Of a stretch of DNA of 64,000 bases, positions 19,719-62,623 are shown one piece after another. Made by a program: the position numbers and the translations under genes. Below the pieces are notes generated by a model. It was given only the letters and a program-made list of their open reading frames with translations, searched no databases and had not been told where the DNA came from. The stretch's first letter is position 1. The number at the start of each line of letters is the position of its first letter. The DNA comes from Zootoca vivipara (lineage: Eukaryota), in the NCBI RefSeq assembly GCF_963506605.1, contig NC_083280.1:30070001-30134000 (forward strand), written 5' to 3'.

Positions 19719-20010
19719 TGAGTTTGGGCTGCCTTGATTACTGGGAATGGGCACCAGCAACCACTGCCTTATGAGTTTGGACTGCCTTGATTACTGGGAA
19801 CATAGCTGCCAAGTTCTCCCTTTTTTTAAGGGAAATTCCCTTATGCTGAATAGGCTTCCTCGTGAGAAAAGGGAAAACTTGGCAGCTATGACTGGGAATG
19901 GGCACCAGCAACCACTGCCTTATGAGTTTGGGCTGCCTTGATTACTGGGAATGGGCACCAGCAACCACTGCCTTATGAGTTTGGGCTGCCTTGATTACTG
20001 GGAATGGGCA
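19719..20010. repeat. 53-bp tandem repeat (~3.7 units)
   Basis: Unit tgagtttgggctgccttgattactgggaatgggcaccagcaaccactgcctta at 19719, 19772, 19923 and 19976. Confidence 0.92.
19801..19890. mobile_element. 90-bp MITE nested in the minisatellite
   Basis: TIR catagctgccaagtt(c/t)tccctttt; 8-bp TSD actgggaa (19793-19800 / 19891-19898). Confidence 0.9.
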
Positions 20011-21772
20011 AAACTCTGACTCTCTTATTAGGACACCTGTATGGTTTCATGTGTGTTGCTCCCATCAAGTGAACTTATAAAATTTCCTCATATTGAATCA
20101 ACCCATTGATTAATACATCTACCTCAATCTCCTGACCAGGCCGGCAGGAGGCCACAGGCAGGCCGCAGGCAGGAGCAGCAGCAGCAAACACGCGCTCCGA
20201 GCCCGCAAGCCTTTTCTGCTGCTGGGCGGGAAGAAGCGCACCCGTTTAAAAAAATAAATAACTACGCCCCGCCCCCCGTGAGCCTATTGGCTGCAGAAAT
20301 GCGGCGGGGAGGGGCTGATGCAGGGAGGGGGCCGACCACGCTCCCCGGGCTGCTAACGTCACCTTGCGTCCTTTTTGCACAGCGCACGCGCACAGCGGAG
20401 TTGTGGACTCCAGCGGGCGCCGTGCGGGGCGCAGGCGCACAGCGCGCCACCGCAGCTGTGTGCTCCGGCGGTGGTGGGCACCGCGCGAGTGTCTGGCGGG
20501 TGTGGCGGGCGCCGCCGCATGGCTCAGGCGGCGCATGGCTTGAACGCCTCCTCCCCTCGTGTCTGCTCCGGAGCCGCAGCAAAGGTGTAAAAGAGCCACA
20601 TGCGGCTCCGGAGCCACAGGTTGCAAGACCCCTGCTTTAACTGATATGAATGTGGAGCATACACACACTGGAGTCCACTTTTCCTCCTCAATAGTTTCAT
20701 TGTGAATGGTTCTTTTGGGAAGCTGAGATTGGAATAGAGGTTAACAAGATGTACTTACATAATGAAAGAGAAAGGCTCATATATCGGCCTCTATGTGGGG
20801 CACCTGCATAGTATATTGTTCTAGGTATGTGGTGGAGTATCTACACCCATGCCTCCTTGCGAAATCTGTTGCTATCATCTCTCTTGAACTAGGTTAAAGC
20901 CTGCTAATGAAATGTCAAAAGATCAGGATCGATTTTTGTTGTCATTTATCTAGTGTGCTCATTCAGATTTCCACTTTATTCAAATACTGTTTTGAACTGA
21001 ACACAGTTTTAGATGTTTTACCCTTTACATATCATGTCTTATTCTGTATGTGGACCATATTGTCACTGGAAATTTTAATTTTTAAATGGAAAGAGCAGCT
21101 ACCCTTTACCTTTACAAGGAATCTTGCAAAGCACAATTTAGGATTGGGTTTTTAGATCTGATATTTCCAGTGCCTTATGAAAATACTCTTCTACCGAGAG
21201 TGTTTGTATTACATTGTATTACATTTTTATGTCTGCTTTCATCCAAAGAGCTCTGAGGGTTTCCAAATAGTCTCTCTTCCAGGTTTTAACTAGGACCATT
21301 CCTGCTTAGGATTAGGTACCCTGAGACCATTTTATGATGCTCTCCTCTTCCTTGCAGTCAGTGTTCTCTATTATACATGTGTACATCTGTCATAACTGAC
21401 AGGACAGATTTCTTTTTTCTTTGTATGTAGTCTGAGCTGTACTGTATTGGTCAGCTTTATCGTCTTTCAAATGGCAAAGTTTTGATTGCATTGATTTAGG
21501 GGTATGTGTATGTTACATGGTGATAAACACACACATGAATTGAGAGAACTTAAATGATAGTGTGTTCCAGTTCATTTATTTTGCCCTGAAAATTGTAAGA
21601 CAGTTTTCTGCAATATAAACAATAATCATTTATCTTGGTATCAGTTTTCAGGACAAAGTGCATTGGAAGTTATTTTGGGGAGGTGGTGACTGAGGTATGC
21701 TCATGTAAGCAGTCTCTGGATAAACTGCATAAGAGTTGTATGCAAGGCTTATTATTTATATTTTAATTTTAG

Positions 21773-31379: not shown

Positions 31380-31427
<48 letters not shown>

Positions 31428-32006
31428 CAAGGGCGTACCCACCATGGGGCAAGTTAGGGCAGCTGCCCTACTCTAGAAGCAGGGCTGGTGGGCAGAGGCG
31501 GAGCACAGCCCGGCGGAGCGCGAGTTCGCCATTCCCGCCGCGCCGCACCGCACCCTCCCTCCAGCTCCCCGGCGCGCCCTCAGGCAAGGCCAAGCGCGGT
31601 GGGGAACCAGGGAGCGCGGCGCGGTGGGCGGGAACGCCGAACTCGCGCTCCGCTGGGCTCCGCCTCCGCCCACCAGCCCTGCTGCTAGGGAGGGGCACAG
31701 CCCGGCGGAGCGCGAGTTCGCCGTTCCCGCCCGCCGCGCTGCGCCCTCCCTCCAGCTCCCCGTCGCGCCCTCTGGCAAGGCCAAGCGCGGCGGGGAACCA
31801 GAGAGTGCGGCGCGGCGGGCGGGAACGCTGAACTCGCGCTCCGCTGGGCTGGGCTCCGCCTCCGCCCACCAGCCCTGCTTCTAGGGAGGGGCACAGCCCG
31901 GCGGAGCGCGAGTTCGCCGTTCCCGCCCACTTTGTGGCCCCTCCCCTTCCGTGCCTTGGCCCCTCCCCTTGCCCCCCCCCTAGTTTTGATCCTGGGTACG
32001 CCCATG

Positions 32007-32051
<45 letters not shown>

Positions 32052-32052
32052 T
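31380..32052. repeat. (GATA)n microsatellite split by an insertion
   Basis: About 12 GATA units on each side of 31428-32006. Confidence 0.95.
31428..32006. mobile_element. Extremely GC/CpG-rich TIR element (hAT-like) with internal ~196-bp repeats
   Basis: TIR ca(a/t)gggcgtaccca; flanked by gatagata; motif cggagcgcgagttcgccgttcccgcc repeated in alternating orientation. Confidence 0.8.
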
Positions 32053-32159
32053 ACTGCCTAGGAAGATGGTTCTGGGATATTACCCTCTTGAGAAGCTCTG
32101 GCTACTCAGGTTGGGATCCATTGCTTAACAGGAACAGTATAACCATCCCTGCAGAGAGA

Positions 32160-47509: not shown

Positions 47510-48266
47510 CAGGTGAAACTCGGAAAATTAGAGTATCGTCAAAAAGTGCATTTATTTCCGTAATGCAACTTATTCTTTTTTTCTTTTTCTTTTAATTTTT
47601 ACAAATGCTTTCTTTTGGAAATTCCACAGTAATAAAACAAATACAGTAGATACAATAATATAAAAATAAACATTGCTATTACATTTCATTAATTACATTC
47701 CATTTATAATTGACCCGCCTAATGACAAATAGGGACCCAGGTGGCGCTGTGGGTTAAACCACATAGTCTAGGGCTTGCTGATCAGAAGGTCGACGGTTCG
47801 AATCCCTGCAACGGGGTGAGCTCCCATTGCTCGGTCCCAGCTCCTGCCAACCTAGCAGTTCGAAAGCATGTTAAAGTGCAAGTAGATAAATAGGGACCGT
47901 CACCGCTCCGGCGGGAAGGTAAACGGCGTTTCCGTGCGCTGCTCTGGTTCGCCAGAAGCAGCTTTGTCATGCTGGCTACATGACCCGGAAGCTGTCTGCG
48001 GACAAACGCCGGCTCCCTCGGCCTATAGAGCGAGATGAGTGCCGCAACCCCAGAGTCGGACACGACTGGACCTGATGGTCAGGGGGCCCTTTACCTTTAC
48101 ATTTTAATGACAAATAATTACAATTACAACAAATATAGGCTTGACATGCCTTGCTTTTTGCATGTCATGCATCTATCTCATATACAGTATTGGTTTCACC
48201 TTTTAAGTTGCATTACTGAAATAAATGCACTTTTCGACGATATTCTAATTTTCCGAGTTTCTCCTG
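47510..48266. mobile_element. Tc1/mariner-type element with ~60-bp TIRs and nested insertions
   Basis: ta|caggtgaaactcggaaaattaga...gtaatgcaactt vs aagttgcattac...tctaattttccgagtttctcctg|ta. Confidence 0.85.
47732..48104 (+). mobile_element. Sauria SINE nested in the Tc1-like element
   Basis: TSD taatgacaaata (47720-47731 / 48105-48116). Confidence 0.92.
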
Positions 48267-48329
48267 TATGTCTGGCCCTTTCCCTATCCTGTTTAAGTAA
48301 AAGGGGATTTAGGACTGGCTGGGGGGGGG

Positions 48330-48760
48330 GCAGCTTCGCTCGTGAGGCGACTGCCTTCCCGCCCCCCTCCCCTCCTGCGAGCAGCTGCTAAAACCCGACG
48401 CACGCGCGCGGGGGGAGGGAGGGAGCGCGGCGGTCCCGCCTCCGAGTGGCGCGCGGAGAGGGCGGGCCGTGGCGGAAGAGCGCAGCTTAGGCAGAGGCGA
48501 AGCCGGCGTCCCGGCTCACTTGTTGCAGGATGGGCTGCAGGCGCGGTTGGCTGAGGAGGCGCAGGAGGCTCCGGTGCGCCTTCCCGGCGCAGGCACCATG
48601 GAGCCGGGCGCTGGCTCTGTCAGGTAGGTGCGGGGCTGCCGGGGTAAGCGCTGGAGCCGCTGGCCCGAGCGTTTGTTGTTTGGTATCCAGGCTGCGGCGC
48701 GTCTCTTCGGACTCCGGCGTTGCGCCTCCTTCCATTATCTCGAGTCCCTTTCCTGCCTTT
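48330..48760 (+). promoter_or_regulatory. CpG island, likely FAM124B promoter and first exon
   Basis: Abrupt GC/CpG-rich non-repetitive island with GC boxes (cccgcc, gggcgg) and an ETS-like cggaag; donor cag|gtaggt at 48623/48624. Confidence 0.8.
48598..48623 (+). CDS. FAM124B: Predicted first coding exon of FAM124B (MEPGAGSV-, 26 nt, phase 2)
   Basis: Strong Kozak gcaccATGg then cag|gtaggt donor; in frame with FAM124B via the microexon. Confidence 0.6.
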
Positions 48761-51700
48761 TCTCCAGCGAGGATGGCTGGTGGGTGCTTTTCCCAAGGAA
48801 ACGGGAACGATAGGCGTCGCCTGTTGGGTTTTCCTCCCGGTTGGGGGGGTTGCTCTTTTAACACCCCACCCCACCCACCCCAAGGGTCACGATGCCAACT
48901 TTGTTGCCCAGACTTGCCAAAAACTTAAAATGCAGGCTCCTCCAGCCCAGCCCATCCTAGTCTCTCAGGGAACTGAAGAGCGCTATGGTTATAGTTTTTC
49001 TACTGGATGGAAGTTGGGAGCAGGAGAGAAATGCAGCTTTAAATATTTTACCTTGTAAAAGTGGCCTGAGTCTGTTTTTTAAAGTTTTTTTCAGGGTCGT
49101 TTTTCATAGGATTCCTTGTTTAATTGCCCCTCTCCAAAATATTTTTATCTATTGTGTATTTTTTTAGTCAATCTTGTTTAAATTTAGGCTGCCTTGGGTC
49201 CTGCAGTGCAAAAAGGTCGGCTGAGCTAAGCAAGATATAAAATCAGTCAATTAATCCATTAATAAAATCCAGCTTTTTCAGACCCAGAGCCTACCTTTAA
49301 CCCATTGGCAGTGCTGCTGTTGTGATCCACCTTCGATCAGGCTGTGTGAGCTGGCAGTGGGTCGCTTCCCCCCAGCCAAAGGCAGCTGGCGCAAGTAATC
49401 TCATGGGGCTGAGAAATGGGTGGGGTGGAAGAAGCTGCCTCAGACCAAAGGTCTTACCTATCTAGTGTCTGGCATCCTTTCCATCCTCAAAACAGCCACC
49501 TAGATGCCTTTGGGGAGCCTGGAAACAAGAGCATGAGGTCTGTAATCTTCTCCCTCTGCTGTTTTCCTCCAGCGACTGGTATTCAGAGGCAGGCAGCCTG
49601 GGCTCCTAACATGTATTATTCGGATTGTAAATGGTTACTGTTCGTGTATTTATAGAAGTATTTCTGTGCTTTCGTATCGTAAAATAGGGTGGTGAGTACA
49701 GGACACCATTAAAAGCAATACAAAGAATAATTAAAGTGACTGCAGAGCTTGTCTGCATAGAAAGGTCTTCAAGAGACTCCTGAAACTTTGCTGGACTAAC
49801 GCAGCATGGGACCAACCACCAACTTCTAGTTGAGGCCAGTAAGGTGTCTTTGACACGGGGATGATGCTGTATTTTTACATTGTTGTGACCCACTCAGAGA
49901 CTTTATGGTGAAGAGTGGGTAAGTAGTAGTAGTAATAATAATAATAATAATGCTGTCATGACTTGTATCTATAGCCTTATTCCCATAGCGTTTGTCTGCA
50001 AGAGTCCTTTGCGGATCAAGTTTTAGCTGCAAATAACAACTTCCCCTTTCCTTTCACCACTTTAAGGAGAAGCGCAGTGCGATCCTCTGTATGTTTGTTC
50101 AGAAGTTCAGGGAGACTTGCTTCCACAAGAGTGTGTAGGATTGTAGCATTAGGGTTCCTTTGTAATAGGAGCCTCTGAGTAAGTTTCATTGGGGCTAGTT
50201 TGAGTAGACATGTGTAGGATTGTGTTGTTAAGCTTGCAACACAATGCACCAGGCATTATTGGTACTGTCCCCAAAAAGGTTTTTTCAAATGACTGCTAGA
50301 TATACAGTTTATTCTCTCTTCCCATCACACACACACACATACACCAAAAACCCATTTGTCTTCCACTTATGTACACATCCTTCACTCTCCCAAAATCTGG
50401 ATGTGTACTTATTACAAAGAAACCACGACCCTCACTGCTTGCTTACTGTTTGGTGCAAAGTGGGTTTGTCATGCTGTTCTGTTGTTGAATGAGGAGCAGA
50501 TAAAGGGCCATATGATGAAACCTTTGCAAATATATTTGTATTTGGCTAAATCTGTTGTGTGCTTTTTTAAAAAGAATATTCACAAAATGATGTACATAAA
50601 AGCAAAAGTAAAAATGTAAGAAAGAAAGCCCATTTTGCAAAGAAGTAATATATCAAGAGGTTACCAGGGTAGCTTCTCCTTATTCATCCTCTTGGCTAGG
50701 TTATTTGAGAAATGTGACCTTTTGACTTGTGTTAACTTTGGTCTCTGGCTTCCCTGCCTGCAGCTCCCTAAGAACTGCTATGGGAACAGTTGTGCAGCCT
50801 CCAAGAAAATGAGGTGGTGAAGGGCAGGGAGGATGGAAAGAGAAGGGAGATTATGCGGCTATTAATCAATTGTTTTGGCATTGTGATGGTAAAAAGTGAC
50901 CTATCTGTGGGAACAGTCATTATTAACGTAGCACAACTTGGGTGTGTGGCACTTTAAAAAGCAACATAAGCAAAATATACGGTAGGTACCTACTGCCAAG
51001 CCTCTTACAATCTCTTAATTTAGATCAAGGAGTTGGAGACAGGCAAGAAAATGTTGTTACTCAAGTAAAGCAGAATCTTATACATACTTAACCTTGAAGT
51101 GATTATTAATGGCACTTCTGAGTAGAGGTGTTTAGGATTGCTCCATTAGTCTTCATCCCCAACTAGGGGTGGTGGGGGAACTAATGGTGCAATCCCTTAT
51201 CCCATTTACTTGGGAGTAACCCCAGTGAATTCCATTAAATTGACTTCTGAGTAGACATGGGTGGGGTTGCACAGCAAGGGGTTAAACCGGTGGCCTCAAA
51301 GAAGTGCATTTTGAGTTGGGATCTGGAGGAAGAGAATGAGGTAGCAACATTGCTGTGATCTTTAGAAGGTGGGTCACAAATCAGAAGTTCTCAGTTTTCG
51401 GTGCAAACTATTATCAGCATTGAATTTGCTTCTCTTTATAAGCAAAGGGAAATCTGCCTTTAAAGCTTCTTATTTTGGATATTTGAACGGTTGAGACGCA
51501 ACTGATCTAACTAAATTGGAGTATCTTCTCTTGCTTAATAACGTAACTATTATGCTAACTTGGACCATGTTTAACACAGACCATCATTCTTTGCAAGAAC
51601 CCCACAGGCTTTTGGCGTTTGCCTTGGGCTGCCATCTCCTTTGTGTCCATCCCTGATACAAAGAACCAGCTTCTGCTCAGGAATATGAAAAGTGTGAACC

Positions 51701-51945
51701 CCTCTACCATAACAGCACGAAACTGGGGTACAAGTACTACCCAAAGCTCTCACAGCTTTGTCTTTTTTGTTGTTGTTCACAAAGATTTTGAAGCATAGAA
51801 TTTTGGCAGGTGGCAAGAGTCAGGGAAGACGTTCATCCTTATGAGATAACTTCTGACTCTCTTGCACGTTTTTCTGTGCACAAGAATGTTAAGAGGGTAC
51901 AGGCCAGGGGCCTTGCATGGATGGGGCAGGCTACACAGTGACAGT

Positions 51946-52040
51946 ATCATAGAATCATATAGTTGGAAGAGACTACAAGGGCCATCCAGTCCAACCCCTT
52001 GCCAAGCAGGAAACACCATCAAAGCATTCTTGACATATGG
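51946..52040 (-). mobile_element. Short CR1 3' end
   Basis: Near-identical to 237-325. Confidence 0.85.
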
Positions 52041-52343
52041 CTCTTGGCATATTGGCTGTGTCTGTTTAGTGGTGGATAAAGTTTTAAGTGTTAGAATCAT
52101 AGAATTTTTGGAAGGGACTTTGAAAGTTGAAGTAAATTTTATCTGTTTTAGTATGTTAACTTTTGTATGTTTCAAAGTACTTTGCCATTTTTTCTTGATT
52201 TCGCTGTTTCATCTTTTGGTAAACTGGGTGAGGTTTTTGTTGTTTTACACAATCAAGTGGTGTATAAATTTTATAATATAAGTAATTTATTCATTGATCC
52301 AGATCAATGCGCATAGTAGTCCTGGGCTGAGCTTCATCTAGAG

Positions 52344-52467
52344 CAGTTTGCCAAACTTGGGTCTCCAGCTGTTTTTGGACTACAACTCCCACCATCCCTA
52401 GCTAGCAGGACCGGTGAAAAGGGATGGTGGGAATTGTAGTCCACAAACAGCTGTTTGGGAAACTCTG
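52344..52467. mobile_element. hAT-type MITE
   Basis: ggactacaactccc core; TSD atctagag (52336-52343 / 52468-52475). Confidence 0.85.
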
Positions 52468-52794
52468 ATCTAGAGTAGCTCAAGGCACCTCCAACAGCTA
52501 GGCTAACTCTTCCCTCCCCAGCAGCACTCTGCAGGAAGATTTCCCCACCTCCCTGGGAACAGTGATTGAAGTATGCTCCCCGCCAAGCCTAATTGTAGTG
52601 TGAGGGGCACTTTGGGGTAGGGCATCATGTACCTGGCCCATATGACTTGCTTAAAGCAGTCCTAGCATCAGTTGGCAACCTCACCACAAAGGAACTGTGC
52701 CATTTGAAAGCACCCGTGTTAAGTAAAATCAATATGGTATAGCTGGACTAGATTATCCAATGTACCAATGTACCAATAACTTCTGTTTTTTCAG

Positions 52795-52829
52795 GTTCCA
52801 ATGCAGTGGATTGACAGCATTTTCTACAA
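52795..52829 (+). CDS. FAM124B: Predicted 35-nt microexon of FAM124B (-RFQCSGLTAFST-)
   Basis: ttctgttttttcag acceptor and consensus gtaagt donor; open in the frame linking ATG 48598 to exon 58335. Confidence 0.65.
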
Positions 52830-52977
52830 GTAAGTAATCCTTTCCTTGCAGTATATATGCTTTGATTAAGGAAGGGATGCTAGAGATTAGATGCTGAAGT
52901 CCTGAAAACTAGTCCAGAAACTTTAGTTGGTTGGGTTATTTCCATTCTCCTTGCAGTCTGCAAAGTATAAAAGCCTT

Positions 52978-53290
52978 AAAGGTAAAGGTAAGGGACCCCT
53001 GACCATTAGGTCCAGTCGTGACTGACTCTGGGGTTGCGGCGCTCATCTCGCATTATTGGCCAAGGGAGCCAGCGTACAGCTTCCAGGTCATGTGGCCAGC
53101 ATGACAAAGCTGCTTATGGCGAACCAGAGCAGCACACAGAAACCCCGTTTACCTTCCCGCTGTAGCAGTACCTATTTATCTACTTGCACTTTGACGTGCT
53201 TTTGAACTGCTAGGTTGGCAGGAGCTGGGACCGAGGAACGGGAGCTTACCCCGTTGCAGGGATTCGAACCGCCGACCTTCTGATTGGCAA
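52978..53290 (-). mobile_element. Sauria SINE (reverse)
   Basis: aaaggtaaaggta tail at the left; reverse complement of the SINE core. Confidence 0.88.
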
Positions 53291-54509
53291 TTCTAGCAGC
53301 TGTCTGAATACCGATAAGGTGTTCTGCTTTATGGGATCTGGTACCACACATCATCCCCAAGTGCAGTTCTTATTGAAAATGCTAAGAACTCCAAATGACT
53401 CAGACTGGCATGAATTAGCGTTGGACTTCCTTCCCGATGGACATATATTAGTATATACACATCAGCAAATCAAACTGGTGCCAAGAGGACAGATGCCTCC
53501 ACTCATTCCAAGCTCCCCACAGTCCAATGTAAGGCAGTTTGGTGTGCTCCGCCCATTTCAAATATACTTTTTATTATGTCCATACAATAGGAATATATTT
53601 TTCTATTGACGTTAGGGAGACACCCCAGGAATTCCAAATGGCCTTCGTTTGACATAGCATTGGGCTAGGAATTGTGCACATAGACAGGCACAGTCAAGCT
53701 TCATACTTTGGGAAGTTTCATCCTTTGGGAACGCTACTCCCAGCTATTGTGTTTACCATCCCAGTGAAATTTACTTGATTTTCTCTTTCATTCTGATTTT
53801 CTTTCTTTTTTTGCCAGGGTTAGAATTTGAAAAGGGACCAGCTTTTTGAGGCTCCATGAACAGCTCAAAAAGCCGCCCAGAGAGGCGGGAGGAACAATGT
53901 CATGCCAGCTGCAGTATAAATTACCAATTAGAAAAGCTGTCATGGGTGTGTTTCATGTGAGGACAAAGCATGGGCTGTTTACGACCAGAAGGCCAGAGGG
54001 ATGTGCGTATGCACGCCTGCTGCTCCCATAAAGATACCCTTTATCTTTCTACTCTAAAGTGGAGAAAGCTACAAACTTTTATTAAGAATTTAAACTTTTT
54101 ATTCTTGAATAGAAAGGATGAAACCATTAACACAAGCCAAATGGTGTTTGCTCAAAGGGGCTTTGTAAAAAATACAAAAGAAATCAGGTTATAGTTATTT
54201 GGGGTCTGTTGAATTGCACCTCCTAAAAAGTATTGCATTACCTGTTTGGTGTGCTCAGTATTGTGATCCATCTTAATTGTACAAGGGAGCAATCCTGGCT
54301 CCTGTCCAGGAGAGGGGACGTCACAGCTGCATTCAAAGCCCTGCTGTGAAAGCCAATCAGGCTGCAAGGTAGAGGTGGGTGGTTTCTTCCCCATTTTGCA
54401 GAAATAATCAGTAGGTGATAGATGTACTTGCTGAACTTGGGCCACAGTGGGTCTCAGCTCCACTCCTCCCTTCCACAGAAATACCTCTATTGTGTGGATC
54501 TTCTGTGGT

Positions 54510-54894
54510 AGGGACACGGGTGGCGCCATGGTCTGAACCACTGAGCCTCTTGGGCTTGCTGATCAGAAGATCGGTGGTTTGAATCCCCACGATGGAGTGA
54601 GCTCCCGTTGCTCTGTCCCAGCTCCTGCCAACCTTGCAGTTCAAAAGCATGCCAGTGCAAGTAGATAGATAGGTACCACTGCAGTGGGAAGGTAAACAGC
54701 GTTTCCGTGCACTCTGGTTTCCATCACGCTGTTCTGATGCGCCAGAAGCAGTTTAGTCATGCTGGCCACATGACCCAGAAAGCTGTCTGTGGACAAACGC
54801 CAGCTCCCTCAGCCTGAAAGCGAGATGAGCGCCACAACCCCATAGTTGCCTTTGACTGGACTTAACCATCCAGAGGTCATTTACCATTTTACCA
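54510..54894 (+). mobile_element. Sauria SINE
   Basis: Head, core and tail present; TSD ttctgtgg (54501-54508 / 54895-54902). Confidence 0.88.
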
Positions 54895-55844
54895 TTCTGT
54901 GGATTTACACTAGCTGTTGTCAGTGGAGATCTCATTGAGGGCAGTTTCTACCCACCTCCACCTCTGTAGATAGAATATATACAGCAGTGAAGGACCCATA
55001 TTGATGGATCCCAGAAAATGGACACAATCGCTGCTTCCTAACCCCTTCCAAGATGGTGGATTGTGGGTTAGGATTGCTTTGAGGCTGCAGTCGTGTGCAT
55101 ACCGGTACTCATCCGGGAGTAAGCCCTGTTGAATATAGTGAGCTCTGTTGAACAGGATGGGACTTACCATCTGAGTAAATAGGCATAGCATCACATTGTA
55201 AAGCAAGCAGGGATGAACGGCAGTTTATTTACAGTGCATATCAATTTTGTGTGCTAATTCATAAGTCAGTTCTGTCCCATTTTTGCATTCTGCACCTTTT
55301 TGCCATCTGCAAATTTCATATTTAAATACCGTATGTGTTTTATACTGGTTATCCTAAAGTATTTGTTTATCCAAGTATTTATATATGTCTCTCTTGCAGA
55401 ACATCAGGGCAGCATATAGCAATACAAAGACCTTTGAAAGCAACACAGAGCAATCATTAAAATTTGCTTAGGTTGCTAGTAATTTTAAACCACTGCATAG
55501 GACTATTAGCAACCCCCTCCCCTCTCCCCTGCACAGAGAACATTGGACTGTATGGAACCTAATTATTCTCATGGTAGACCTATTGAGATTAATAGACCCA
55601 AGTTAGTCATGTCAGTTATTGTGAATGGGTGTCTTCTGAGTAGGACTAACATTAGATGAAATGACATTTGGAGAAATACGAAATCTAAATGAAAACCTCA
55701 TTCCAATCACACAGTATTTTGGAAGGTTGGGATCAGGTATGTTCGCATTCCTTAAAGCAAGTACCTGGGAAATTAGATGAGCGAAACAAATGTAGTGATA
55801 TGGAATTGGTGAAAGTTTTAATAGGTACTGTTTCTTCTCTCCAG

Positions 55845-55954
55845 CTCCTCTCCTCTCAATGGAAGTAGTCAGTGACTACATTGATTGGGATATTGATCAT
55901 CTGGGCTTTGTCCAGAAAAATTACTTTGGACTCGCAGACTCAAAGAGCAATATG
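55845..55954 (+). other. Candidate 110-nt alternative (frameshifting) exon in FAM124B intron
   Basis: tttcttctctccag acceptor and atg|gtaatt donor; length not a multiple of 3. Confidence 0.4.
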
Positions 55955-57216
55955 GTAATTTTTTTAAAAAAATGCATCAAGATAGAGAATAGTGAGCTAT
56001 GTCATGACTCAAGCTCATTAGCCTTACATTTCTTATCCCAATGCTGCAATATTTTAAACAAGAGATGCCTGGAATTGAATCTCTTGTGTGCAAAACCATG
56101 CGATTTAAACCTTGGTCTATGGCCCTTCTTACCTCGAAAACATCTTTTAAAATATACACTCCCCCTTTTCCCCCTAGCTCAGTGTGGGTGTCACAAAAAC
56201 CTTCACACAAAGAAGAAATTAAAAAAAAAAGAGGGCGGGGGGTGGCGAGAGAAGAATACAGCTGCGTCCGCCAAAGGATGAGGTATTGTTGGTGAAACCC
56301 ATCTGAGTAATAGCTAGGGAAACAGGGCAAGTTGCTTTGCTGCATTCACACTTAGGGAAATTAGGGTTTTCAGTAAGATAGAATATTAGCATCCCCCCCT
56401 CCCACAGGAAGGTTGTACAGGAAAACAGGAAGCAGGTGGTAATTACTGATAATGGGATAATTGTTGTATTGTGTGATCTCTACCCCCCTCCTGCCATTTT
56501 GCTTTAGGAGCTCCCCAGAAAGATAGTTTTAAGCATGTTGTATCTAAGCAACACTACAAGCAGGGCCATCTTTTGTTTGCCTTTTGCAATGACATGGGAA
56601 TGGGATTCTTGCTAGCATTTGACGTTTGCTTTACGTGCATCTAGGACATCCCCAGAATGGGAAACAATGATCCTATCACTTTTATTCTTGCCTTCTTTAA
56701 ACAAAACATAGTTTGCAATATAGTTGTTCTAGTTTGCATGTGACACTTCTAATTTGCATAGAATTTGCATGACACTACTGTACCTATTTTACAGATGGGG
56801 ATCAGAATCATTTCAGAAAGCAGCCACAGATTTCCAGCCTGGGGAAATCGCATGAATCTTTCCCCTGGGATTGGAGCTTCCCAGGGCTGCTCATTCTGTG
56901 GTTAGACATCACTCAACTGGCCCTGACCGTCCTACTGAATCATTTAAATGTTAACATAGCTACGTGGAAGCTATTCCTGCATGGCTAGGGCTGTAGCTGG
57001 CAGAAATCGAGGCTTACGACTGGGGAGAGCCTGGTTCAAATCTCCGCTCAGCTATGAAGCTCGCTGGGTGACCTTGAGCCAGTTACATTCTTTCTCTCCC
57101 TACCTCACAGGGTAGTTGTGAAAATAAAGTGTGTGTGTGTGTAAGAATTTGTAAGTCACCCTGGGGTCCTTGGAGATGTGGGATAAAACAATAAAACTTG
57201 CTTAAATACTCTAAAG

Positions 57217-57352
57217 CAGGCATCCCCAAACTCAGCCCTACAGATGTTTTGGGACTACAACTCCCATCATCCCTAGCTAAGGGGACCAGGGGTCAGAGAT
57301 GATGGGAATTGTAGTCCCAAAACATCTGGAGGGCCGAGTTTGGGGATGCCTG
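57217..57352. mobile_element. hAT-type MITE (791/25881 family), followed by an older related MITE at about 57361-57470
   Basis: TIR caggcatccccaaactc; TSD (c/t)tctaaag. Confidence 0.9.
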
Positions 57353-58334
57353 TTCTAAAGCAACCACGCCCAACCTGGTGCCTTCCATATATTTTGAACT
57401 ACAACAACTACCCAGCTGAGGCTGATGGGAGTTGTAGTCCAAAACTGTTGGAAGGCACCAGGTTGGGGGGCGGGATTGAACCAAAAGTATTTTACACTTT
57501 CAGGATTGATCTCAAATCCATGACATTGGTAGCTAGGCAACAAATAAACAGCTTACATTTCTAGGAAACTCCCTCTGACACACGCGTATACACTCACACT
57601 TTGCTTTGAGATTGCTGTGAGGAAATGAGGCCTCTGGAATAATTGGTGCAGTGCCATATGGCAGGATGTGCAATAGCCTTGCATAAAGGCAGCATTTAGA
57701 AACAGTTTCCCTGAAGTCTTGCCTCTCTTGAAATTGCTTCTTGGGAGATAGACATCTGTTATCTGCAGCACCCACATTGGATTCCCTTTAGTTGTCCTAT
57801 GTCTTTTTAGCCTTTTTTAAAAAAAAGGTTTATCAGCACAGGACAGAAGGGTGTTGTCTCAGGAAGAGTGCTACCGTAGCTTTGTAAACACAGACCCCAA
57901 CACTTGGCATAGAGATTTGAAGGAGAAAACAACACTGAGTCTTTGAAAACATTAGCATCACCTTGCATTTGCACAGAGATGGTGGTTTACGAGGGTTGTG
58001 TTAAGATCCTGCAGTGAAAGAAAATCTGGTCTGGATTTTAGGGATTTGCAAATGTAAGGTATAGAGCTCTGTCTTGGGAGCTAGGAGATGCGAGATTTCC
58101 CCCACCCTTGTCTTATCATCACATTTCTAACACCCAATATGCAGGTAATAAAAAGATTAATCTCTTGTGTTAGTGCCATTCTGAGGTCTGCAGAGCATAT
58201 AGAGGAGCTTAAGTGGGAATCGGTTGGGAAGTGCAGAGTTAATTGTTTTACTTTGGTGTTTGTTGCTGTGTGTGATATCCCTTAATCCGTAAGCACTGAG
58301 GCAGCTCTTGTATTATTCCTTGTGTACTTTCAAG

Positions 58335-59077
58335 GTCACTATACAATGGATGGAAGGGCAGACTCGTTGGTGATGACTGTGCACTTGCTTGCCAAATGTG
58401 GACACGCGTTGCCCTTGCAACAAGCCCTCAATCAGCTTCAAGAATGGATCTGCCTGGACGTGCGCCTCTTCCTTGTGTCGGAACGCACTTCTCCCATAAA
58501 GTATTATGAGACGTACCGCCAGAGGAGCTCCAGGTTCCCTGGGACATCTGTGTTACTTTTCCTGCATGAGGACTTGGGGGAAGAGCGGATTTTCCAAGTC
58601 CACGACTTTTTCCAGCACCCGCCGTGGCAGCGAGTCCACCTGGAGATTGCCAGCAGGAAGCTGTCGCCCCATACCCTTGAGGACCAGGACTTCTATGGGC
58701 TGGACGAGCACATGCCCGTGTGGGGACTGAGGCAAGTTCATTACGGCACGGAAATCTTGCGCGTTACGCTCTACTGTAGCTTTGATAACTACGCCGATGC
58801 AGTGAGGCTCTACGAGACAATCCTGCAGAAGGAAGCGACTGTGCAGAAAAGCAGCTTCTGTGCCTTCGTGCTGCACGTGACAGAGAGCATTGCGGTCCAG
58901 CTCTGCTTGAAGCAGCTGCCTCTGGGAATATGCGTGGACTCGAAGGAGTCTTCGGTGTTGCAGTTCAAGGTGCATGAAATCGGACAGCTGGTACCGCTTC
59001 TGCCTAATCCCTGCATTCCTATTAGCAGCACTAGGTGGCAAACTGAAGACTACGAAGGGAACAAGATCCTGTTTCAG
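58335..59077 (+). CDS. FAM124B: FAM124B main coding exon (FAM124 domain; internal ATG 58346 MDGRADSLVMTVHLL...GNKILFQ)
   Basis: ORF 58322..59095 matches FAM124B (EILRVTLYCSFDNY, EIGQLVPLLPNPC, RWQTEDYEGNKIL); tttcaag acceptor, cag|gtattg donor; 732 nt from ATG 58346 to the donor; CUL3-FAM124B synteny. Confidence 0.93.
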
Positions 59078-59420
59078 GTATTGCTCGGTTTATAAATGGT
59101 GGGCAGAATCTGCAAGGGAAGGGGGGATGGCCGTAGCTCAGGGGGCAGAGCATTCACTTTGCATGCAGAAGGTCCCCGGTTCAATTCCCAGCATCTCCAT
59201 GTAGGGCTGGGAAATACTTCTGTCTGAAACCCTAGAAACCCAGTGCCAGTTGATATAGACCATACTGAGCTAAATGGACCCAAAGGTCTTGACTCAGCAT
59301 AAGGCAGATCCCTATGTCCACCCGGTGAACCTCTCTTTACTGCATTGGATATTGCATTAACACAGCAGTAGACACTGTGTAAGACTGCTTGGTGTTGATG
59401 GTTTATTGAATTATGATCGT

Positions 59421-61966: not shown

Positions 61967-62623
61967 GTTCAAGGCAACTCGAAGCACACTGGAAATCAAG
62001 ACTCCTCTTCTAGTTGGCACAGCCATGAACACAAGGAAGGGCCCCTTCACTACCCCTGCAGTCCATCTCCATTGGCCATAAGAAAAATTGCAGTACAGCC
62101 CAAAAACCGGACAGTTCGAGCCATGAAGAATAAAAGCAAATCCTCACGAGAAGGTGCATATGCTCCAGGAAGTATTTGCAGTCACTCACCAAGCAACCTT
62201 TGCTCTTCATCCCAGTCATATAGTCCAGCAGGTTCTTCTTGCCAGGGCTTAGGCCCTTCTCAAACGAACTTGGCCACTAAATTGCGACATTCCAGTCATG
62301 AACTCTGGCCTTGTCAAAGGGTGGAGGAGACTGATGTTGACACAGGCAACAAAGTGATCCTTTCCGACTGCAGTGATTCGCCACTAAGTAGATTTTCACA
62401 AGACATACAGAAAGCGCTTCTTCAGTCTCAGGCATCCTGCTGTCTGTTAACGGGATCAGGCTCCACAATCAGCTTGCACTCTGAGGGCAGAAGCAATCTG
62501 TTGTCATCACACATCGCCAAGAGGAATAAAGGATCAGAACAGGTGCCATCAAGTTTCCCCTTGGGAGCATCCAAAACAAGCCATGGATATGGAAAGGATG
62601 AGGAAGAAGAATTCTTTATATGA
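61967..62623 (+). CDS. FAM124B: FAM124B terminal coding exon (VQGNSKH...EETDVDTG...EEEEFFI*)
   Basis: ttttatag acceptor, phase 0, in frame with ORF 62072..62623; ETDVDTG motif and EEEFFI C-terminus typical of the family. Confidence 0.9.
   Translation, partial: VQGNSKHTGNQDSSSSWHSHEHKEGPLHYPCSPSPLAIRKIAVQPKNRTVRAMKNKSKSSREGAYAPGSICSHSPSNLCSSSQSYSPAGSSCQGLGPSQTNLATKLRHSSHELWPCQRVEETDVDTGNKVILSDCSDSPLSRFSQDIQKALLQSQASCCLLTGSGSTISLHSEGRSNLLSSHIAKRNKGSEQVPSSFPLGASKTSHGYGKDEEEEFFI

Follow-up and report, generated by a model that had tools for sequence, protein, structure and literature searches.

Human FAM124B has been described as partnering with CHD8/CHD7 in the nucleus (PMC3528654). The human protein (NP_001116251.1, 455 aa) shares with that of the lizard analysed here a FAM124 domain exon and a last exon. 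Passages on FAM124B in a SLiM atlas preprint (10.64898/2026.07.03.735260) deal with residues 356-371 rather than with the N-terminus. Literature searches retrieved no paper pairing FAM124B with 'microexon', FAM124A with 'TrCP', or FAM124 with 'evolution' and 'intron phase'.

The window, a 64,000-nt stretch of the genome of the lizard Zootoca vivipara, contains a gene whose encoded protein yields a full-length match to the FAM124 profile (Pfam PF15067, 358 bits versus a cutoff of 23.5). In a 35-row tree of the FAM124 domain it falls with named FAM124B sequences, apart from FAM124A (B clade support 100/99), and its product is identical to an entry named FAM124B. Cullin exons, with Cullin-3 as the best PDB match, lie upstream on the plus strand, placing the gene next to CUL3, which is also the neighbour of human FAM124B. 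The coding exons and associated features are collected in Table 1.

Table 1. Features of the FAM124B locus, numbered from the first letter of the window.
Feature	Position	Strand	Remarks
CpG island, presumed FAM124B promoter	48250..48899	.	GC and CpG o/e windows; promoter role inferred
Upstream ATG	48530..48532	+	uORF or 497-aa start, by microexon use (predicted)
Coding part of exon 1	48598..48623	+	26 nt, phase 2; N-terminus of RefSeq X1
20-nt extension of exon 1 to second consensus donor	48624..48643	+	putative use in Zootoca
Microexon	52795..52829	+	35 nt, phase 2/1; homologous to 32-nt FAM124A microexon
Large exon	58335..59077	+	11 nt, then ATG 58346 and FAM124 domain (PF15067)
Internal ATG	58346..58348	+	strong context; start of 462-aa form
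Last coding exon	61967..62623	+	218 codons and stop

All introns of this four-exon chain have GT-AG borders. The donor of exon 1 is GTAGGT, the microexon is flanked by a pyrimidine-rich CAG acceptor and a GTAAGT donor, and the acceptor of the large exon ends in AAG. The 72 nt obtained by joining the three 5' pieces are open and share the frame of ATG 58346, so that with the last exon the ORF from ATG 48598 (A at -3, G at +4) comprises 486 aa, versus 462 aa from ATG 58346. The exon chain and 24-aa in-frame extension put forward in the preliminary description are thus correct. Candidate internal exons of 15-150 nt in the interval separating exon 1 from the large exon were scored under graded splice-site filters. 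Under the loose filter, 40 of 381 candidates were open and in frame, the microexon among them, whereas under the three strict filters it was the only such candidate (1/15, 1/12 and 1/3 pairs) and hence is not a chance occurrence.

Comparison with FAM124A, based on the gene in the Zootoca genome and on mammalian entries, places the same chain in a paralogous context. In Zootoca FAM124A, the first exon is of phase 2 and the microexon is 32 nt long and of phase 2/1; a phase-2 first intron, a microexon of 3n+2 nt and a phase-1 second intron are hence present in both paralogues. The two microexons are identical at 19 of 32 nt, a value reached by 54/20000 and 41/20000 nulls. The proposal that FAM124B retains the ancestral FAM124 exon architecture therefore holds, since the phases match.

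The extension is not hidden, as had been claimed. The ORF product is identical (486/486) to RefSeq XP_034989389.2, the predicted FAM124B isoform X1 of Z. vivipara; the 486-aa isoform adds nothing to existing annotation. The 24-aa start is also annotated in four further lacertids (Lacerta agilis X1, Podarcis muralis X2, P. raffonei X4 and P. lilfordi CAI5775571.1) and one amphisbaenian (Rhineura floridana X2). These other lacertid models, also predicted, share 22-23 of the 24 extension residues with Zootoca, and the predicted Rhineura model 15. In the lacertid protein cluster (21 members), the 486-aa form accounts for 5 of the 15 members listed; 462-aa forms are found among them as well, one being common to four Zootoca accessions.

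FAM124B proteins of shark, lungfish, bowfin, teleost and caecilian have an N-terminus with a conserved DSGAE(T/S) motif, and the long-N-terminus shark, lungfish, bowfin and teleost proteins group in the FAM124B clade (100/99). Anchored on splice positions, the N-termini of Carcharodon X1, Amia X3, Esox, Protopterus and Microcaecilia X1 can be aligned to the lizard extension, the exon borders in fishes, lungfish and caecilian being deduced from the alignment rather than from DNA. The latter proteins keep a DSGAE(T/S)(A/G)-SD.S..SS..S peptide, preceded by more residues than in the lizard. The full motif and the internal Met occur together in Microcaecilia X1. Among the 57 extensions in 206 tetrapod FAM124B entries, a redundant set including isoforms and near relatives, the true motif occurs in only two, both of them Microcaecilia isoforms. 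A third match to the DSG regular expression, in elephant, proved on inspection to be an unrelated exon.

In the lizard the exon-1 codons are in register with the ancestral xDSGAETAG motif, yet eroded. The Asp of the DSG core is lost in lizards, and in lacertids the Ser as well; DSGAE(T/S) followed by SD.S..SS is absent from the lizard extension. Against the motif profile, from which one row lacking the anchor was left out, exon 1 scores 7.7 in Zootoca and 12.3 in Rhineura, versus 27.8-35.1 in the intact rows. For the microexon, four lizard genera score 8.6 (Zootoca), 0.2, 1.4 and -5.6, crocodilians 18.5-21 and intact rows 24.6-34.2. Homology between the old motif and the exon-1 codons of the lizard reaches only moderate significance (448/20000 for protein and 781/20000 for DNA; 90/20000 for Rhineura). 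Since the motif encoded by the fish exons has decayed in the lizard, the extension is probably vestigial and not a functional novelty. Judging from these comparisons, the 5' exons of FAM124B are probably relics, and the 24-aa extension an annotated but eroded vestige of the ancestral N-terminus of FAM124, its original job likely lost. The best reading takes the shorter form of 462 aa as the product conserved in amniotes, a Met at the position of ATG 58346 being found in 118 of the 120 orthologue matches listed, and the in-frame upstream ATG as lineage-limited.

Alternatively, the 486-aa form might be the main, selected product of lacertoid lizards, its extension remodelled into a new functional peptide. 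The near-ideal Kozak context of ATG 48598, the canonical splice sites and the residues shared among lacertids and Rhineura speak for this possibility. Moreover, the microexon has 11 codons and is open in the lacertid, Rhineura, Varanus and Anolis models (10 codons in crocodilians), its frame thus being preserved in four lizard lineages, and the ATG at the 48598 position is common to lacertids and Rhineura; both could reflect continued coding constraint. However, the identity between Zootoca and Rhineura in the extension (15/24) is not above that of the variable C-terminal region (145/218; domain, 220/244). The extension has no Pfam match, the internal Met is nearly always kept, and start and frame vary in snake, Varanus and Anolis models. 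Python and boa models align with lizard exon 1 without gaps but in another frame (0/2000 shuffles), and they leave the microexon out, whereas in three colubrid-type models the stretch with ATG 48598 is gapped or altered; other species were compared through protein annotation, which displays in-frame cases and conceals out-of-frame ones. Extensions in turtle, several bird and some lizard models were discarded as instances of microexon use, as their F/Y-rich ends look on inspection like translated acceptor tracts. A selected 486-aa product with a remodelled functional peptide is unlikely. The preliminary description implied that the ancestral peptide was retained as well, but only the exons were kept: the DSGAE(T/S)...MSS peptide is eroded and the exon-1 start codon and frame vary among squamate lineages.

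A second alternative concerns the upstream ATG. Windows of 200 nt starting at 48250-48700 have GC of 0.59-0.76 and CpG o/e of 0.75-1.0, and GC-box matches are located at 48359 and 48460. ATG 48530, described earlier as out of frame, has A at -3 and G at +4. That description stands with the microexon included, when it opens a 37-codon uORF with a stop at 52812, and fails with the microexon skipped, when it is in frame and yields a 497-aa ORF. Across the eight start/donor/microexon combinations compared, ATG 48598 comes into frame on inclusion of the microexon, ATG 48530 then opening a uORF that ends within the microexon, and skipping does the reverse. A second consensus donor, GTAAGC, follows 48643; the 20 nt preceding it are homologous to a part of exon 1 that snake gene models use, and their inclusion brings a stop into the frame of ATG 48598. 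The retained exons might thus serve mainly translational control, with microexon inclusion or skipping picking the in-frame one of two strong upstream ATGs and tuning FAM124B output. Consistently, exon 1 remains recognisable between lizard and snake despite different frames. However, such a swap is possible for any two ATGs of different frame around a 3n+2 exon, the 497-aa form is absent among the 15 of 21 lacertid cluster members listed, and ATG 48530 may fall outside the mRNA. We consider such control highly improbable as the main role.

The interval 48200-59300 was compared with one contig run and with three raw RNA runs, about 6% of each raw run being covered. Neither junction 48623-52795 nor 52829-58335 is among the 15 joints listed, at a low depth (0-3 raw-run reads over the large exon) and with repeats crowding the tables; a further 52 joints and 571 loose ends lie beyond the listing. 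The bin at the end of exon 1 has zero depth in 4/4 runs, although dips in animal genes are no finding in themselves. Contigs of the contig run and reads of one raw run cover the intron upstream of 58335, and a contig break falls at 58334, at odds with the microexon junction. It is nevertheless hardly credible that the chain represents an annotation artefact or a trace-level splice form, with transcription mostly from nearer the large exon, given its annotation in five lacertids and Rhineura (P. lilfordi CAI5775571.1 being outside RefSeq), its homology to FAM124A in phase and sequence, and the shallow, repeat-crowded RNA data.

Under the preferred reading of the 5' exons as relics, a Met would have been gained four codons into the large exon in early tetrapods, so that the FAM124 domain presumably no longer needed the exons upstream. 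These exons would have drifted in amniotes into mostly 5'-UTR exons; in lacertids and Rhineura they may stay translatable through an ATG at the codon that directly precedes the old motif. Transcription from the CpG island would yield the 486-aa form provided that the microexon is included and ATG 48530 is bypassed by the ribosome; leaky scanning, reinitiation or a different choice of 5' exons might yield the 462-aa form. On this reading, the 5' exons of FAM124B offer a clear case of coding exons decaying towards 5'-UTR once an internal start codon arose. More speculatively, and quite unlikely as a whole, a phosphodegron-like N-terminal module would have been lost stepwise (intact from sharks to caecilians and bypassed by the new tetrapod internal Met, with partial erosion in crocodilians, erosion in lizards, another reading frame in snakes and absence from human transcripts), and the lacertid microexon remnant would act as a frame switch between two upstream ATGs, setting both N-terminus and protein amount.

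The ancestral DSGAE(T/S) motif resembles, as a pattern match, the beta-TrCP DSGxxS/T phosphodegron; PMC13097077 gives the consensus as DSGXXS, which the lizard extension does not match. This degron-like motif is conserved in FAM124A and non-amniote FAM124B. FAM124A is like lizard FAM124B in its short phase-2 first exon within a CpG-rich stretch, its phase-2/1 microexon and the phase-1 acceptor of its large FAM124-domain exon. Unlike lizard FAM124B, it has 65 coding nt and an intact DSGAET motif in exon 1 and a microexon of 32 rather than 35 nt; the lizard gene also lacks the Met that FAM124B has four codons into its large exon. Should the motif be a degron, FAM124B of amniotes, a reported partner of CHD7/CHD8 (PMC3528654), would have been freed from a turnover control that FAM124A has kept.

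All three pieces of the 24-aa N-terminal extension claimed for lizard FAM124B lie where the preliminary description had placed them (see table). Together with the last exon they form an open reading frame of 486 aa from ATG 48598 (A at -3, G at +4), versus 462 aa from the internal ATG, as predicted there. The Pfam FAM124 domain is entirely contained in the large exon. The extension is not hidden, as had been proposed, since the 486-aa product is already in RefSeq: it is identical over 486/486 residues to P0127 (XP_034989389.2, FAM124B isoform X1 of Zootoca vivipara), and the 486-aa form accounts for five of the 15 listed members of a 21-member cluster (Zootoca, Lacerta agilis, Podarcis muralis, P. 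raffonei and P. lilfordi). Forms of 462 aa are annotated alongside; both kinds of entry are predicted gene models. The 486-aa isoform is already known.

Coordinates of FAM124B, FAM124A and neighbouring features (window positions unless a contig is named)
Feature	Position	Strand	Remark
CUL3 (Cullin-3) exons	10432-40296	+	upstream of FAM124B, same strand
Second CpG-rich stretch within CUL3	20001-20700		GC 0.60, CpG o/e 0.84
CpG-rich repeated stretch within CUL3	31421-32079		GC 0.76; apparently a tandem repeat, not a promoter
FAM124B exon 1, coding part	48598-48623	+	donor GTAGGT directly after
FAM124B microexon, 35 nt	52795-52829	+	CAG acceptor, pyrimidine-rich; GTAAGT donor
FAM124B large exon, start	58335	+	11 nt ahead of ATG 58346
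FAM124B last exon	61967-62623	+	completes the ORF
FAM124A (this genome, G000)	C3: 6069935-6060697	-	loci L001, L003; DSGAET motif intact; introns 2397 + 6744 nt
FAM124A microexon, 32 nt	C3: 6067473-6067442	-	followed by phase-1 acceptor of FAM124A large exon

With strict splice-site filtering, no open in-frame candidate other than the microexon is left in the 9.7 kb (1/15, 1/12 and 1/3 pairs); with loose filtering it is among 40 open in-frame candidates out of 381. Start, donor and microexon can be combined in eight ways in the window, two of which yield long in-frame ORFs: ATG 48598 when the microexon is included (486 aa) and ATG 48530 when it is left out (497 aa). The upstream ATG 48530, described earlier as out of frame, is so when the microexon is included but not when it is skipped. 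No entry for the 497-aa form occurs among the 15 listed members of the lacertid cluster.

In three raw RNA runs and one contig run, neither junction of the microexon (48623-52795, 52829-58335) occurs among the 15 joints listed, at a depth of 0-3 reads over the large exon in the raw runs. One contig assembled from RNA run X1 covers 58334-59079 and reaches two bases beyond the large-exon donor, as expected with splicing to 61967, where the first two bases match those of the donor. Its other end overlaps an intronic contig by 30 nt, which points to a branch ending in a non-A base followed by G. Such a branch mismatches the microexon (AA end) and donor 48623 (AG end) and is compatible with 7/30 consensus donors, 48643 among them. 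These contig ends speak, if only mildly, against dominance of the microexon form in run X1. X1 contigs (depth 3-10) and a few reads of run X23 cover the 3' portion of the intron that precedes the large exon (55200-58334); this coverage may stem from intron retention, nascent transcripts, DNA or an alternative start.

Models from Python, Liasis and Candoia align without gaps to lizard 48530-48643 (0/2000 shuffles each). Their exon 1 follows the frame of ATG 48530 and not that of 48598, reaches the equivalent of the second lizard donor, after 48643, and is joined without the microexon. The ATG 48598 stretch is gapped or substituted in Pantherophis, Ahaetulla and Erythrolamprus, a result that depends on the alignment. 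Judged from these alignments, exon 1 is conserved across lizards and snakes and its reading frame is not. Stretches 48985-49065 and 53331-53530 (+) are homologous to 5' exons added in models X1/X2 of P. raffonei and X1 of P. muralis; these P. raffonei models translate the microexon in a different frame. In the window, the counterpart of the 53.3-kb piece matches in two separate frames and is therefore not a single open frame.

The paralogue was located on contig C3 by searching this genome with a FAM124A protein. Its first exon (65 coding nt, CpG-rich surroundings) ends in phase 2 and a 32-nt microexon follows, in agreement with the FAM124A architecture given in the preliminary description. 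The FAM124A and FAM124B microexons are identical at 19/32 nt with one 3-nt gap, a match equalled by 54/20000 random intron pieces and 41/20000 shuffles. In a domain tree of 35 rows, long-N-terminus proteins of shark, lungfish, bowfin and teleosts fall within the FAM124B clade (100/99). These share with FAM124A the DSGAE(T/S) motif and, after it, a serine-rich stretch, which in fish and lungfish FAM124B maps to the microexon, with exon borders inferred from alignment. Isoform X1 of the caecilian Microcaecilia has the full motif plus the internal Met. FAM124A phases, microexon homology and fish N-termini bear out the earlier proposal that the exon architecture of lizard FAM124B is ancestral.

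Lizard exon-1 codons, anchored on splice positions, align gap-free with the ancestral motif, the start ATG lying one codon ahead of the old Asp. Against a profile of 10 rows (one row without an anchor was left out), exon 1 scores 7.7 in lacertids (448/20000 nulls) and 12.3 in Rhineura (90/20000), with intact rows at 27.8-35.1. The Zootoca microexon scores 8.6 (284/20000 nulls; intact rows 24.6-34.2), crocodilians reach 18.5-21, and Rhineura (0.2), Anolis (1.4) and Varanus (-5.6) are non-significant. Rhineura floridana X2 also has a 24-aa extension, with 15/24 residues identical; identity is 220/244 in the domain and 145/218 in the C-terminal region. Among 206 tetrapod FAM124B entries, a redundant set with isoforms counted, 57 have an extension of >3 aa, 21 an in-frame microexon-like peptide, and only two, both Microcaecilia isoforms, the true motif. 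Of 364 matches, 120 were listed, and 118 of these carry the internal Met. The N-terminal peptide of the lizard extension is eroded. In a marsupial model, Macrotis lagotis FAM124B X1 (P0367), the extension is 16 aa long and contains a remnant of the motif, DSGAG.

The FAM124B 5' exons are probably relics. The internal Met would have appeared early in tetrapods, constraint on the upstream peptide would have been lost in amniotes, and lacertoids would have retained a degenerate yet translatable version. That the extension was remodelled into a functional peptide seems unlikely, and a uORF or frame-switch role of the 5' exons still less probable. In favour of these readings, the microexon keeps its length and frame in models from several lizards; on the other side, databases of proteins reveal in-frame cases only.

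Literature searches, partly judged by title and abstract start, found no paper on FAM124B exon history, which is a modest addition to a known isoform. Human FAM124B is described as consisting of two exons, the first of which contains the ATG (PMC3528654). In that paper, a western-blot band taken as the endogenous protein runs at ~57 kDa versus 51 kDa predicted, and the authors suggest modification. The ancestral motif may be likened, as a pattern match only, to the beta-TrCP degron consensus DSGXXS, as given in PMC13097077.
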